In this document: piece after piece, positions 22,017 to 25,810 of the stretch
Numbering within the stretch: position 1 is the first letter of the stretch
Layout: every line of letters starts with the position of its first letter
Assembly (NCBI GenBank): GCA_041389045.1
Contig: JAWKSQ010000001.1
Span: 331,063-395,062 of the forward strand
Origin: Minisyncoccota bacterium
GTDB taxonomy: Bacteria; Patescibacteriota; Minisyncoccia; Phycocordibacterales; UBA918
DNA length: 64,000 nt
Reading direction: 5' to 3'
Program-made: the position numbers and the translations under genes
Notes under the pieces: model-generated
Told to the model about the DNA's origin: nothing
Seen by the model: the letters and a program-made list of their open reading frames with translations, nothing else
Database searches by the model: none

Positions 22017-22073
22017 TATATATGATAGCATCACGGGGCTTAAGCGCAGTGCGCTTTTTTGCTTAGTATTCTT

Positions 22074-22841
22074 ATGTCAACAAACACAAATAATTCATCA
22101 TTAATCGAGCGCTTATTTAGCGTCGGAGCCCACTTTGGCTTCAAAAAAAGTCGACGTCATCCAACCGTGACGCCTTATTTATATGGTACAAAGGAAGGTA
22201 ACGATATTTTCGACCTTGAAAAAACAGCTGATTTAGTCGCTAAGGCTTCAGCTGTCCTAAAGGAGGCTGGTATGAACGGGAAGACGGTACTTTTCGTTGG
22301 TACTAAAGAAGAAGTAGTGAAGGCGGTAGCTTCTGCTGCTGCCAAAGTAGAAATGCCTTTTGTGGTCAATCGTTGGATTGGAGGAATGCTAACCAACTTC
22401 TCTGAGATTCGAAAAAGAATCAACCGATTAGAAGAAATTACTAGCGGTAATGAATCTGGTGAACTAGAACGTAAGTACACTAAGAAGGAACGCATGATGC
22501 TAGGTCGTGAAGCGACTAAGCTTGAACATAACTTCAAGGGTATTAGTACTATCATAAGATTGACTTTATGGTTGTGGTTGACCCGAGACATGATCATATT
22601 GCTGTTAAAAAAGCTCGCGATATGAAAGTGCCAATCATTGGTATCATGAGTTCTGACTTCTGTAATGTGTCGGAAATTACTTACCCAGTTGTTATTAACG
22701 ACTATTTACAGGGGAAGTGTAGCGGTTATCCTAGAAGAACTTACAACCGCTCTGAAGCGCTGTGGTAAAGCAGAATTTGTACCAAAGCCAGTAGCGCCAC
22801 GGACAGAATCTCGTCCTCGAACTCGCGCACCTCGCGCCTAA
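22074..22841 (+). CDS. rpsB: Ribosomal protein S2 (two apparent frameshifts, near 22560 and near 22715)
   Basis: FGFKKSRRHPTV ... NRWIGGMLTNF, then VVVDPRHDHIAVKKARDMKVPIIGI in the +1 frame. The C-terminus VAVILEELTTALKRCGK ... RAPRA lies in a third frame and ends at TAA 22839-22841. Confidence 0.85.
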
Positions 22842-23493: not shown

Positions 23494-23940
23494 GTGTCAG
23501 CTATGCTTAGTGCTGGAGCGTTATTTTTCACTAGCTTAGGTTTACTTCTCCTGTTCGCTTTTTTTACTTCTTGGGAACAGCAGAAAGGTGCTAGAGTGTT
23601 GTTACCGCGTCTGCGAGAAATGTTGGACACTCTCATCCTTAAGGTGTATGAGTATTTGAAGTCAAAGGTTAAATATCTGGTTAGACACACCATTAAGCTT
23701 TCTTGGTATTACAGTATTCATTCAATGCTGAAAACCATTATGACTCTTTTAGTTAAGGCTTATGACCGACTCGAGCTGGTTTTCATGGAGAATCGTGAAC
23801 GAGCCAAAGTTTTGCGAGCAGAAAAAAGACTAATGACTAAAGATAATCACTTAACTGCCATGGTAGAACATAAGGCGTCGACCGCTTTAACAGATAGCCA
23901 GAAGAAAAAACTGAAAGCCAAAAAATTAGAACGGGAATAA
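23494..23940 (+). CDS. Hypothetical membrane-anchored protein
   Basis: 148 aa. One N-terminal TM (GALFFTSLGLLLLFAFF) and a Lys-rich C-terminus. No recognisable family. Confidence 0.45.
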   Translation: MSAMLSAGALFFTSLGLLLLFAFFTSWEQQKGARVLLPRLREMLDTLILKVYEYLKSKVKYLVRHTIKLSWYYSIHSMLKTIMTLLVKAYDRLELVFMENRERAKVLRAEKRLMTKDNHLTAMVEHKASTALTDSQKKKLKAKKLERE

Positions 23941-24008
23941 TGGGTTGCACTTTTTTCTAAAAACGGCATAATAGCAGTCACTCGTAAGAGTAAATCAAAA
24001 GTAGTATG

Positions 24009-24236
24009 GCCATCTTAGCTCAGTTGGAGAGTTAAAATAATCTGGGAGATTATTTTAAAGTTATCAAAACCGTTTCTCCATTTTGAACACAGAGGGCGGT
24101 CAGTAGAGTAGGGAAGCATTGCCATCTTAGCTCAGTTGGAGAGTTAAAATAATCTGGGAGATTATTTTAAAGTTTTGTCACAAAACCGTTTCTCCATTTT
24201 GAACACAGAAGGCGGTCAGTAGAGTAGGGAAGCATT
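24009..24236 (+). repeat. Two tandem degenerate tRNA-Thr-derived units (112 and 116 bp) immediately upstream of the intact tRNA
   Basis: Units start at 24009 and 24121. Each opens with gccatcttagctcagttgg, identical to tRNA positions 1-19, followed by (a)gag. Each carries a 27-nt perfect hairpin (ttaaaataatct-ggg-agattattttaa). Unit 2 also has an anticodon-arm-like remnant (ttttgtcacaaaaccgt). Neither unit has an acceptor 3' strand. Confidence 0.85.
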
Positions 24237-24309
24237 GCCATCTTAGCTCAGTTGGTAGAGCAACGGTTTTGTAAACCGTGGGTCGTCAGTTCAAATCTGA
24301 CAGATGGCT
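24237..24309 (+). tRNA. tRNA-Thr (anticodon UGU)
   Basis: Manual cloverleaf: acceptor GCCATCT/AGATGGC, D arm GCTC-AGTTGGTA-GAGC, anticodon arm ACGGT-TTTGTAA-ACCGT, variable GGGTC, T arm GTCAG-TTCAAAT-CTGAC, discriminator U. No encoded CCA. Confidence 0.9.
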
Positions 24310-24345
24310 CCGACACGAGGGTCGTGATACGAGTGAAGCGAGTAA

Positions 24346-24405
24346 GGAACTACAAAAAATACCTTAAGGAAAGTTAACTTTCCTTAAGGTATTTTTTGTA
24401 GTTCC
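24346..24405. repeat. Perfect 60-bp palindrome (30 + 30, no loop)
   Basis: ggaactacaaaaaataccttaaggaaagtt / aactttccttaaggtattttttgtagttcc. It lies 37 bp past the tRNA 3' end. Confidence 0.9.
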
Positions 24406-24770
24406 AGTCTGGCCTTAGCCAGACGTAATCATGACCGAGTGAGGCCAATCTGTATGCTTTGCATACAGATGGTCAATAACCCATTCAAGACCTCTAAAGC
24501 TATGCTTGACCCCTCAAGACTTCCAGTGAGGCCAATCTGTATCCGCAGATACAGATGGCGTGTAATAGCGCTTCATAAATAATAATCAACAAAGTATCTA
24601 TCAATAAGTTTCAGTTCCAGTCAACCAGACGTAGTCATGACCGAGTGAGGCCAATCTGTATGCTTTGCATACAGATGGTCAATAACCCATTTAAGATCTC
24701 TAAAGCTATGCTTGACCCCTCAAGACTTCCGAGTGAGGCTATGCTGTATCGCAGATACAGATGACTAATC
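24400..24770 (+). repeat. Two copies (period 212 bp) of a ~160-bp unit, each with two hairpins that mimic the tRNA-Thr acceptor stem
   Basis: Copies start at 24400 and 24612, both with agttccagtc. Hairpins are at 24444-24473, 24531-24559, 24649-24678 and a degenerate one at 24737-24764. Their form is gcca(a)tct-gtat-loop-atac-agatgg(c/t). Confidence 0.85.
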
Positions 24771-24868
24771 TCAAAATTTACCTTGACAAACTCTTGATAA
24801 ATATAAATTATATCTTCCATAGGTAACCCTGACCTAAATTCAGGGAAAGTTTTCTAGGGAGAAAAGTA

Positions 24869-25251
24869 GTGAAATTGCTAATTGTTGAAGACCAACCTAG
24901 TTGGCAATCCTATTTTCGAGACTACGTTTTGCCAAAGGTCAGATTTTGAGGTGTTATTCGTTAACGACCTCTCCGAAGTGACTGTAGCGTTACTGGACGA
25001 TAAACAACATTTTGATGCCCTGATCGTTACAAACATCTTCGGTGTTGAACTTGTTCGTGCCTTGAGCGTACACCTTGCATTCAAAGGAAATGAAGCTCAT
25101 CATTCTTACTGTGGAGGATTACTGGAGGTTAGAGGCACTGGTTGCTGGGGCGACTCTGTTTCAGAACAAGTTTGACCTAAGGTGCTTGAGCTTCGTGCGT
25201 TGCTCACATTGCCACCTTGAATCCGTCACTACCCTTGAGAAGCGCCCCTAG
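24869..25251 (+). pseudogene. Stand-alone response-regulator receiver (CheY-like) gene with at least 2 frameshifts
   Basis: VKLLIVEDQPS in frame 1. FEVLFVNDLSEVTVALLDDKQHFDALIVT in frame 2. MKLIILTVEDYWRLEALVAGATLFQNKFD in frame 3, ending at TAG 25249-25251. A TTGACA promoter-like box lies at 24783. Confidence 0.7.
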
Positions 25252-25410
25252 GCTCTCTCGGGCGGTTTTTTCATATCCTAAAAACCTCCGGCCAGCCGGA
25301 GAGTACGTTAAGGCAACGCATATACTAAAGCCGAGTGATAGCTTTAGTAATAACCTAAATACGTATGCGCAAACGCTACATTAAAACACTAGCACATTAT
25401 TTACTACGAG

Positions 25411-25810
25411 ATGAAATACCATCTCGTCTGGACTCCCAAAATACCGAGGCAAGGTACTAGGACCACAAAAGGTTAAAGATGAATTGAGACGTACTTTTGA
25501 ATCAATCACTAAATACAGACACTGGAAATAATCGAACTAAACATCCAAGATGATCATATCCACTTAATACTGAGTGCTTCTCCGAGGGATTCAGTCTCGT
25601 ACCTGATGCAAATAATTAAAGGTAAAAGCTCAGCTTGGATGAAGAAAATAAAACGTGCTCATGGTCTCTATGAAAAAGAATCACTCTGGGCAGAGGTTAT
25701 TTCGTCTCTACGATCGGTCTAGATGAAATGATTATCCGTCGGTACGTGAAGCATCAAGATCATCATAATCAAGTTGATCAACCATCACTATTTAACAAAC
25801 TAATCTCCTA
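25411..25810 (+). mobile_element. tnpA: IS200/IS605-family Y1 (HUH) transposase tnpA relic with at least 3 frameshifts
   Basis: MKYHLVWTPK, then across frames YRGKVLGPQKVKDELRR ... IQDDHIHLILSASP (HUH) ... IIKGKSSAWM ... LWAEGYFVSTIG ... IIRRYVKHQ (catalytic Tyr context). Flanking hairpins are at ~25288-25304 (ctccggccagccggag) and 25874-25895 (ccaccggacctaagtccggtgg). Confidence 0.8.

Follow-up and report, generated by a model that had tools for sequence, protein, structure and literature searches.

The tRNA-Thr gene of a Minisyncoccota bacterium (GenBank assembly GCA_041389045.1, contig JAWKSQ010000001.1) is followed by a structured element of about 180 nt that, in the Paceibacteria and Nomurabacteria, is inherited vertically, is restricted to the tRNA-Thr locus, and lies on the strand of the tRNA. 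It is described here from a stretch of 64,000 nt (positions 331,063 to 395,062 of the contig; hereafter the window) and from the corresponding loci of relatives. Its parts follow one another in a set order: the tRNA, a short trailer with CGAG(N)G motifs, a long-range helix (P1) that encloses two further helices (P2 and P3), a single-stranded CGAGUGAGG, and a terminal hairpin (P4). This hairpin is homologous in form to the stack of acceptor stem and T-stem in the tRNA. Judged by sequence comparison and predicted folding, the whole is very probably a conserved, structured, tRNA-linked RNA element of the plus strand and not a mobile element.

The bacteria of the candidate phyla radiation (CPR) have tiny genomes with little non-coding DNA, and a structure of some 180 nt that has been kept across a class-level clade of them is therefore very likely to be functional. 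Our literature searches found nothing on such a tRNA-linked motif in CPR bacteria, and the matching of a trailer element with its cognate tRNA is, to our knowledge, undescribed. The element would be a new structured RNA motif, absent from Rfam, which is coupled both physically and evolutionarily to one tRNA and which carries a natural acceptor/T-stem minihelix. If this minihelix were processed, CCA-tailed or bound by a tRNA-specific factor, it would be a rare natural and cellular example of a “top-half” tRNA mimic, a kind of molecule so far studied mostly with synthetic substrates, and it might provide a route into tRNA maturation and regulation in organisms not yet cultured.

Four Conserved Helices Downstream of tRNA-Thr

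The alignment that defines the element covers about 180 nt, from the 3' end of the tRNA through the first hairpin, in 15 genomes, and was folded with RNAalifold. The resulting fold has four helices: the long-range P1, a palindrome of about 30 bp (P2), a small hairpin (P3), and an acceptor-like hairpin (P4). Its 55 pairs are formed in 93.5% of the alignment cells, versus 39–47% after the partners are slid by 1–3 columns, and both sides have changed in 34 of the 55, versus 20.9 +/- 2.3 in shuffles; on no measure does any of 500 shuffles reach the observed value. Covariation is found in 22 of the 28 pairs of P2, in 5 of the 6 pairs of P3, and in 4 of the 7 pairs of P1. P1 joins strands that lie about 100 nt apart, spans both P2 and P3, and keeps in 12 of the 15 sequences a G.U pair that would read C.A on the opposite strand. 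Such a long-range helix across two hairpins, combined with a strand-specific wobble, points to an RNA on the tRNA strand; this assignment rests on P1 and not on the G.U pairs within P4. The covariation of P1 across P2 further indicates that transcription continues through P2. The inner stem of P4 (CUGUAU/AUACAG), unlike P2 and P3, is invariant and conserved in sequence, and its closing pair alone flips between G-C and C-G (7 of 20 copies).

In the window all these parts are on the plus strand. The single tRNA is tRNA-Thr(UGU), at 24237–24311 (ARAGORN; Rfam tRNA model, 72.4 bits, E=5e-15), with the acceptor strands GCCATCT and AGATGGC, a discriminator T, and no encoded CCA. The trailer with its CGAG(N)G motifs (24312–24345) contains the 5' strand of P1, whose core, GTCGTGA, is at 24321–24327 and whose extended form is at 24320–24331. 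P2 (24346–24405) is a perfect 60-nt palindrome that can form a hairpin of about 28–30 bp with the apex GAAAGTTAACTTTC, and the predicted hairpin P3 (24407–24424) reads GTCTGGC-CTTA-GCCAGAC. The segment 24424–24444 comprises the 3' strand of P1 (core TCATGAC, 24429–24435) and then the conserved single-stranded CGAGTGAGG, which is nearly invariant in two alignments of sister modules; in P1, 24321–24327 is paired with 24429–24435, that is, the trailer with the segment just 5' of CGAGTGAGG. The first copy of P4 is at 24443–24474. When the window sequence is folded by itself, its minimum free energy structure is the tRNA cloverleaf followed by P1 to P4 (-118 kcal/mol), and the segment 24312–24780 folds far better than its shuffles (z = -8.75).

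A motif CGAG(A/T/C)G recurs in the module, with three or four copies in the trailer and one ahead of each hairpin, so that it flanks P1 on both sides; it is found in the window at 24312–24345 and 24436–24444 and in all the sister modules, and it might serve as a protein site or in a non-canonical pairing of the two linkers. A pairing of CGAGTGA with a leader upstream of the tRNA (TCACTCG in the window) was considered and rejected, as this pairing is not conserved in the other loci.

Rfam 15 has no family that matches the element, whether in the region of the window or in the five sister loci examined, and the tRNA alone reaches the threshold there; the remaining matches, to miRNA-precursor and Thr_leader models, are below threshold and fall on the P2 palindrome. 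The rtT model, examined in the same regions, has no match at E<=1. Nor is P4 detected as a tRNA or a tRNA pseudogene, the only call of ARAGORN and of the Rfam tRNA model being 24237–24311.

Distribution among Relatives

An exact-pattern scan with one genome per species found two hairpin-bearing Patescibacteria (L003 and L006; the loci of relatives carry numbers with the prefix L). In both, the hairpin lies just downstream of tRNA-Thr(UGU), and one hairpin-bearing stretch was found in each genome. The two other matches of the pattern, in Bacillus and in Paludibacteraceae, have no tRNA nearby, and their covariance-model scores are noise. Sister loci were collected through a 148-aa protein whose gene flanks the tRNA unit (22 loci, from metagenomes) and through exact-protein look-ups (7 full loci). 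The hairpin is present in 16 genomes of Paceibacteria and Nomurabacteria, its first copy 125–132 nt after tRNA-Thr(UGU), or 51 nt in the reduced version of L020; in most of these genomes the flanking 148-aa protein is only 38–60% identical to that of the window. The gene order tsf, 148-aa gene, tRNA-Thr, and GT2 glycosyltransferase gene is conserved across the sister loci. Among the 229 kb of fetched sequence, covariance-model matches are located only downstream of tRNA-Thr and always on the tRNA strand, and in L006 and L027 (UBA3466-type genomes) the tRNA and its downstream module form a single block whose orientation is reversed with respect to tsf and the 148-aa gene.

The number of P4 copies varies from 1 to 8 among genomes. 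The largest array seen, eight acceptor-like hairpins in a row, is that of L037 (2688–3440 of this locus; Candidatus Nomurabacteria, GCA_020632095.1, a 997-kb contig), where a 99-bp unit is repeated 7.6 times with 99% identity. There are two flavours of hairpin: type I with the loop region GTATGCTTTGCATAC and type II with GTATC(C)GCAGATAC. Both types are present in the window, in L025, and in L033, and type II hairpins (GTATCGCAGATAC) are found also in L025, L026, and L033; both flavours are old.

The contigs of L029, L030, L031, L041, L009, and L014 end inside repeats of the tRNA or of the units upstream of it (described below). Since short-read contigs end in these repeats, the locus is systematically broken or collapsed, and copy numbers in metagenome-assembled genomes (MAGs) may be unreliable. 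A practical consequence is that such repeats break short-read assemblies at the tRNA-Thr locus.

Likeness of the Terminal Hairpin to the tRNA

The original prediction, which was made from the window sequence by itself, had noted that the hairpin arms, GCCA(A)TCT and AGATGG(C/T), are the acceptor strands GCCATCT and AGATGGC of the neighbouring tRNA-Thr apart from one bulged A, and this is borne out. It had also remarked that deletion of the 12 inner nucleotides leaves AATCTGACAGATGG, a sequence present in the tRNA; this is literally true, but the AATCTG half of that 14-mer is not conserved in relatives, where the conserved match is confined to the 3' part, ACAG(A/G)TGG(C), often followed by a discriminator U. 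The AATCTG half results from the complementarity of the arms and the bulge, as is seen in L026, whose hairpin has CCACACTG versus TTCGAATCTG in its own tRNA.

The likeness extends beyond the acceptor stem. The T-stem pairs 49:65 and 50:64 (G-C and U-A) are also reproduced in P4, type I hairpins add 53:61 (G-C), and about 10 of the 12 bp of the acceptor/T-stem stack, as read from the window sequence, are present. P4 stems thus have the dimensions and make-up of a minihelix, with 12–14 bp in which all seven acceptor pairs are kept on a remnant of the T-stem, and the GGC of P4 is followed by a discriminator-like U in about 10 of 19 copies. Judged by its predicted fold, P4 is the “top half” of tRNA-Thr: a 7-bp acceptor stem with one bulged base, set on a T-stem remnant and often followed by the discriminator U. 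The description of the hairpins as minihelix mimics stands as far as form is concerned, with the qualification that there is no T-loop and that one base is bulged; it is strengthened by the finding that in 16 genomes the hairpin has been conserved and has changed along with its own tRNA. Identity to the tRNA extends over 8–10 nt, and the trailer beyond this tract is not copied, except for a match of 16 nt in L006 and L027. There, the second hairpin has the 16 nt (ACAGATGGCTCCGAGA) in common with the end of the tRNA and its trailer.

Change in Step with the Cognate tRNA

Position 68 of the tRNA is A in 8 and G in 8 of the hairpin genomes, and every intact hairpin matches its own tRNA at this position, including those in loci with 2, 4, or 8 copies (Fisher p=1.6e-4, uncorrected for relatedness). 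The two states are interleaved on neighbour-joining trees of the flanking proteins, where at least about five switches are needed: L023 (A) lies within L025, L026, and L035 (G), L020 (G) stands by L019 (A), and L037 (G) by L006 (A). Where the tRNA has a U5.G68 wobble, the 5' arm of the hairpin has a C, which makes a C-G pair and a full compensation; this C opposite G68 indicates that the 5' arm follows its own 3' arm and not the 5' strand of the tRNA. Disagreement at position 68 is confined to decayed copies, such as the remnant in L039. Drift from the tRNA occurs elsewhere in the stem: at position 67 in L007 (compensated), at position 71 in L039 and in copy 2 of L033, and at the pairs 1:72 and 2:71 in L020.

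Local Amplification of the Hairpins

Four hairpins copying the acceptor stem of tRNA-Thr had been claimed for the window, and four copies there are, of which only the last has decayed. The first, HP1 (24443–24474), has a type I loop, GGCCA(A)TCTGTATGC-TTT-GCATACAGATGGTC, a predicted energy of -19.5 kcal/mol, and a covariance-model score of 68.5 bits, and it is the orthologue of the hairpin in the sister genomes. The segment 24524–24559 contains CAGTGAGG and then HP2 (24531–24559; type II loop; GCCA(A)TCTGTATC-CGCA-GATACAGATGGC; 45.2 bits). A duplicated second unit starts at 24612, and as far as 24680 it comprises the end of the P2 3' arm, a partly deleted remnant of P3, a second P1 3' strand, GAGTGAGG, and HP3 (24649–24680; 68.5 bits), which is identical to HP1. 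Finally, 24731–24765 contains GAGTGAGG and HP4 (24738–24765; GCTATGCTGTATC-GCA-GATACAGATGAC; 3 mismatches; -10.1 kcal/mol; 37.5 bits), a decaying copy of HP2. HP1 to HP3 have stems of 13–14 bp with one bulged A and energies of -17 to -20 kcal/mol, as against the degenerate HP4 at -10 kcal/mol, and each of the four has (C)GAGTGAGG ahead of it.

All these copies are confined to 24431–24772. The hairpin covariance model has its four plus-strand matches there, and the next best match in the window is at E=0.65. Likewise, the sequence CCGAGTGAGGCCAATCTGTAT occurs at 24435, 24522, 24641, and 24729 (identity 100, 90, 100, and 86%) and, with up to 3 mismatches, nowhere else in the 64 kb, compared with no match in 100 shuffles. 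The tandem units themselves, 24400–24560 and 24612–24765, lie downstream of the tRNA with two copies of ACAGATGG in each, and a direct repeat of 106 nt (24419–24524 and 24625–24730) is 97% identical at a spacing of 206 bp. The period of 212 bp that had originally been proposed holds at the starts of the units (24400 versus 24612), but elsewhere it is 206 bp, because unit 2 has a deletion of about 6 nt in the small hairpin.

To judge from these repeats, the four copies of the window are the product of local tandem duplication. Unequal crossing-over has amplified the module, in that an ancient pair of one type I and one type II hairpin was doubled once more as a unit of 206–212 bp, giving four copies. 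As unit 2 has no second P1 5' strand, the copy that contains HP3 is a by-product of the duplication.

Repeats Upstream of the tRNA and the Surrounding Genes

The further claim, that modules made from the ends of the tRNA lie on either side of it, is supported by two pseudo-5'-half units upstream of it (24009–24236), here called PSI'. Both are on the plus strand. In unit 1 (24009–24120) the 5' acceptor strand and the D-arm of tRNA-Thr are copied (GCCATCTTAGCTCAGTTGGAGAG), and there are also an AT-rich hairpin, whose loop is CUGGGAG, and a leader; unit 2 (24121–24236) is its tandem duplicate with an additional foldback, AGTTTTGTCACAAAAC, and holds an antisense copy of a 5' piece of the D-stem and anticodon stem, ACAAAACCGTTTCTC being complementary to GAGCAACGGTTTTGT of the tRNA. 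The units, of 112 and 116 bp (Tandem Repeats Finder: period 116, 2.2 copies, 95% identity), open with the first 23 nt or so of the tRNA (5' acceptor strand and D-arm), which are followed by the AT-rich hairpin and the antisense piece. Of 21 loci, 18 have homologous units about 106 nt ahead of the tRNA, and the units are tandemly amplified in L007, L013, and L020 as well as in the window. Their inner hairpin covaries and has two flavours, V1 (GGTGAGACAGTC..) and V2 (GTTAAAACAGT..). The foldback of PSI' consists of an anticodon-loop sequence and its complement (GTTTTGTAAAC/ATTTACAAAAC) and contains a -35-like TTTACA, and the 5' strand of the unit follows that of the tRNA (GCCACC, GCCGCC). The idea that the CUGGGAG loop might be an anticodon loop was rejected, since the loops differ between loci (CCGGGGG, CUUUGAG).

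Downstream of tRNA-Thr, a second kind of partial-tRNA unit is found in L007, L009, L010, L013, L014, L015, and L036. It comprises a D-arm, the PSI' hairpin, and the 3' part of the tRNA from the anticodon loop to the 3' end, without the 5' acceptor strand, and is sometimes in perfect tandem repeat (L013, with a period of 118 nt). The unit appears to have arisen when PSI' and the tRNA underwent unequal crossing-over.

Directly 3' of the 148-aa protein gene is a putative promoter, recognised by consensus (TTGCAC-N16-CATAAT, 23945–23972, plus strand), which on that basis would drive the entire tRNA-Thr unit; a block TTGCGA...CATAATAGCAG is kept 3' of this gene in nearly all the sister loci. The gene (23494–23940) is immediately upstream of the tRNA unit in every case. 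The protein has a hydrophobic N-terminal segment and a conserved SWYYSIH...AEHKAS...QKKKL motif; it has 349 homologues at E<=1e-10, one of them, 100% identical, in a MAG of a “Candidatus Paceibacterota bacterium”, and no significant Pfam domain. Farther upstream, rpsB (ribosomal protein S2; 22059–22841) is split over three frames in the window and is a single open reading frame (ORF) of 245–277 aa in relatives; the split gene is either a pseudogene or the result of sequence errors in the source assembly.

On the other side, the interval from the hairpins to the GT2 gene contains a broken and frameshifted ORF resembling a receiver domain (24870–25250; no Pfam match on stitched frames) and, about 650 bp beyond the hairpins, a frameshifted relic of an IS200-type Y1 transposase (25403–25800; Pfam Y1_Tnp E=2.4e-24, stitched frames). 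The extra DNA at this position differs in other lineages (L011, L020, L021, L023, L035), which suggests an insertion hot spot.

Possible Function and Rival Explanations

The explanation that seems best to us as a whole, and that we believe about as much as we doubt, is that P1–P4 is a conserved trailer RNA following tRNA-Thr(UGU) whose terminal minihelix is handled by the enzymes of tRNA end processing. The element would be transcribed together with the tRNA, and after release of the latter the P1–P4 RNA would persist as a 3' trailer RNA. Its terminal minihelix would then be recognised by readers of the acceptor/T-stem, namely RNase P on the 5' side and RNase Z, the CCA-adding enzyme, and possibly threonyl-tRNA synthetase (ThrRS) on the 3' side. 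Such recognition would define and protect the ends of the RNA, or else titrate these factors, and selection for likeness to the cognate tRNA would hold P4 in step with position 68. For P4 taken separately, a mechanism of mimicry and processing is a tentative proposal in which we have rather less confidence than doubt. A bolder version, quite unlikely on present sequence data, would make of P1–P4 a new class of tRNA-appended RNA, whose threonine minihelix is, after processing, CCA-tailed, recognised, and perhaps charged by the threonine system, with the arrays of up to eight acting as decoy, sponge, or donor; dependence on a reader of the tRNA-Thr acceptor helix would in that case account for a hairpin that has matched its own tRNA through at least about five A/G switches.

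Several observations weigh against a processed trailer RNA with a mimic at its end. P4 has no T-loop-like loop (its loops are of 3 to 8 nt) and has a conserved bulge that is absent from the tRNA, and its terminal pairs drift from G1-C72 and C2-G71 in L020, L039, and copy 2 of L033, which makes a mimic directed at ThrRS or RNase P less persuasive. We know of no acceptor-stem reader that discriminates pair 5:68. The inner stem of P4 shows sequence conservation instead of covariation, a hint that P4 may have a different specific partner, and the asymmetry of G.U versus A.C within P4 is mixed. P2 resembles a bidirectional intrinsic terminator (A-tract, stem, T-tract) and, if it were an efficient one, would prevent co-transcription of P4; the covariation of P1 argues against this, without proving read-through. 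The stem of P2 runs beyond the A and T tracts, so that the T-tract lies inside the extended stem, and in the window neither P2 nor P4 is called by the terminator scan. Lastly, the module has been lost or has decayed in L009, L010, L013, L015, L019, L021, L022, L028, and L036, and its loss in several lineages means that it is dispensable.

An unlikely alternative is that P4 descends from a decayed tandem copy of tRNA-Thr and now serves only as a generic 3' stabilising or terminator hairpin, its likeness to the tRNA being maintained by short-tract gene conversion or template switching and not by selection for mimicry. Unequal crossing-over evidently operates at the locus, with its PSI' duplications (window, L007, L013, L020) and its P4 arrays of 2–8; L020 and L039 have terminal P4 pairs that do not fully conform to the tRNA; and the tyrT/tyrV locus of Escherichia coli has similar repeats, made by recombination, with a tRNA 3' end. 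A U-run after P4, terminator-like, is present in about 5 of 14 lineages (L020, L025/L026, L033), but the copies of the window have none. Besides, conversion would have to act on a very short tract of identity (8–10 nt, with 4–5 nt to the left and right of the tracked base), copying from arm to arm would erase the bulge that nearly all lineages have kept, and a generic hairpin would have no need of an invariant inner stem. Joint change of P4 and tRNA would likewise be explained by a switch between alternative pairings, which we consider improbable. Here the 5' arm of P4 would pair either with the 3' arm of P4 or, extending P1, with the 3' acceptor strand of the tRNA, in an attenuator-like logic of four segments that would couple folding or processing of tRNA-Thr to 3'-end formation or to read-through into the downstream glycosyltransferase gene; this requires the 3' arm of P4 to equal the 3' strand of the tRNA. 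The strict match of both arms to position 68 fits such a design, and with a truncated tRNA RNAalifold does extend P1 (tRNA UGGCU with GGCCA of P4, and ACG with GUG), one pair of the extension having changed in compensation from C-G to U-A in L006. The same extra pair, however, is broken in L033, the swapped state (modelled with a partial constraint for the swapped pairing) is about 24 kcal/mol less stable in the window (-94 versus -118), a U-run follows P4 in only a minority of lineages, the window not among them, and arrays of up to eight P4 copies do not fit.

The remaining alternatives place the origin of the hairpins in DNA transactions. As remnants of site-specific recombination, a very unlikely reading, the 3' arm would be the att core for an integrase that targets tRNA-Thr, the 5' arm an inverted binding site, and CGAG(N)G the arm-type sites, and the arrays would record repeated integrations or a cis-mobilisable mini-element. 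The hairpin does copy the 3' end of the tRNA (16 nt in the second copy of L006 and L027), the DNA beyond it varies as is typical of insertion hot spots linked to tRNA genes, and identity of the core between sites would be maintained by recombination itself. Yet neither the ORFs nor the called genes of about 25 loci include one that resembles an integrase (most of these ORFs not having been scanned against Pfam), the motif is on no viral contig (0 matches in three scans, all of viral contigs and none of plasmid collections), and no distal direct repeat bounds the extra DNA of the window. The hairpin, moreover, keeps a fixed distance from the tRNA with or without extra DNA beyond it, is embedded in the covarying P1, and has arms whose spacing of 3 to 8 nt and covarying closing pairs suit a hairpin and not a recombinase site. 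The serial att-site scars suggested in the original prediction are not supported, given the lack of an integrase-like gene, an identity of 8–10 nt inside a hairpin, and vertical inheritance. More improbable still is that the palindromes act as DNA bound by a protein, or that they belong to a small RNA of the minus strand, ending at a P2 terminator and having the seed CCUCACUCG. P4 and P2 are near-perfect palindromes that fold on either strand (for 6 of 18 P4 copies the minus-strand fold is slightly the better), the A and T tracts of P2 are symmetric, and the P2 apex and the P4 inner stem are conserved in sequence; but the conserved wobble of P1 would become C.A, covariance-model matches that include the asymmetric flank are on the tRNA strand only, neither a reading of the sister loci nor a scan found a conserved minus-strand promoter downstream of P4, and the variable arm spacing is at odds with a fixed dimeric DNA site. 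Hardly credible, finally, is a tRNA-derived miniature inverted-repeat or palindrome-associated transposable element (MITE or PATE), or an element like the repetitive extragenic palindromes, mobilised by the nearby IS200-type Y1 transposase. The transposase relic is present at 25403–25800, and hairpins with an extrahelical base are typical substrates of Y1 enzymes; against this, the window has a single such locus and one hairpin-bearing stretch was found in each of two other genomes, the position is orthologous in every case, the sister loci have no comparable transposase ORF or transposase family among their called genes (the relic of the window being the only one Pfam-tested), and the hairpins flanking the relic (CTCCGGC..GCCGGAG and CCACCGGAC..GTCCGGTGG) are unrelated in sequence. 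A MITE or PATE tied to the Y1 relic, as first envisaged, finds no support in copy number, position, or flanking hairpins.

Some more specific identities were rejected outright. A dif/Xer site (the P4 palindrome is about 28 bp) disagrees with a cumulative GC skew that rises straight through the locus and with the variable arm spacing, and a LexA-type box, CTGT-N8-ACAG, with a spacer that is N8 in L006 but ranges from N8 to N12 in other loci. Small ORFs (a 47-codon GTG ORF at 24439–24582 and ATG starts inside the hairpin) would encode unrelated peptides in L003 and L006, and GAGTGAGG is not complementary to U73-CCA, as a primer-binding-site-like complement of the tRNA 3' CCA end would have to be.

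Comparison with Known Systems

The tyrT/tyrV locus of E. coli, with its rtT RNA (RttR), also has tandem repeats directly downstream of a tRNA gene, each with a copy of the tRNA 3' end; as re-checked in strain K-12, there are three 178-bp repeats, the last of which overlaps 19 nt of the tyrV 3' end, with rttR annotated there. The copy number of these repeats arises by unequal crossing-over, as is known from the older tyrT literature. The rtT RNA has been linked to processing of the tyrT transcript (bioRxiv 10.1101/2024.07.17.603846). Tandem units of the same kind, in which the 3' end of the tRNA is copied, follow the tRNA in the window and in the L037 array. In contrast, P1–P4 has no similarity to rtT in sequence or in the Rfam model; its tRNA-derived piece is a complete folded minihelix with 8–10 nt of identity, within a covarying structure of four helices, and it is conserved over a class-level clade in step with its tRNA, neither of which is known to us for rtT.

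By position the element resembles the 3' external transcribed spacers (3'ETS) of tRNA operons, functional trailer RNAs that are released by tRNA processing (PMC8166272). P1–P4 occupies the same trailer position as the E. coli 3'ETS-leuZ, a sponge of small RNAs (sRNAs), and is likened to it by position alone, for 3'ETS-leuZ is short, ends at the operon terminator, base-pairs with Hfq-dependent sRNAs, and has no tRNA mimic.

As to mimicry, minihelices and 4.5S-type RNAs are substrates of RNase P, and P4, with its stem of 12–14 bp and its frequent discriminator-like U, is of comparable form. In punctuation of the mascRNA type, at the 3' end of MALAT1, imitation of the acceptor/T-stem recruits RNase P, RNase Z, and the CCA-adding enzyme and so defines RNA ends (PMC8457004). 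The mascRNA is a full cloverleaf-like fold in eukaryotes, however, whereas P4, which is likened to it by predicted form, has no T-loop and has a conserved bulge. The 3' tRNA-like structures of viruses and the tRNA-like domain of transfer-messenger RNA (tmRNA) are likewise non-tRNA RNAs that present a mimic of the acceptor arm to CCA-adding enzymes and aminoacyl-tRNA synthetases; they possess a whole L-shape or a T-arm and are aminoacylated experimentally, whereas P4 is a bare minihelix beside its cognate tRNA gene, and by this analogy charging of P4 would be pure speculation.

The att repeats and cis-mobilisable elements linked to tRNA genes share with the present locus the direct copies of the tRNA 3' end downstream, sometimes serial and next to variable DNA. 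The att direct repeat of a tRNA 3' end is usually 15 bp or more; here the repeat is very short, forms a hairpin of variable loop length, and is vertically conserved; the ORFs and called genes that were examined include none resembling an integrase, and the viral contigs scanned contain no attP partner. The element is a member of none of these known systems. Its nearest analogue would be tyrT/tyrV in form, the 3'ETS trailer RNAs in position, and mascRNA and the minihelix substrates in mimicry.

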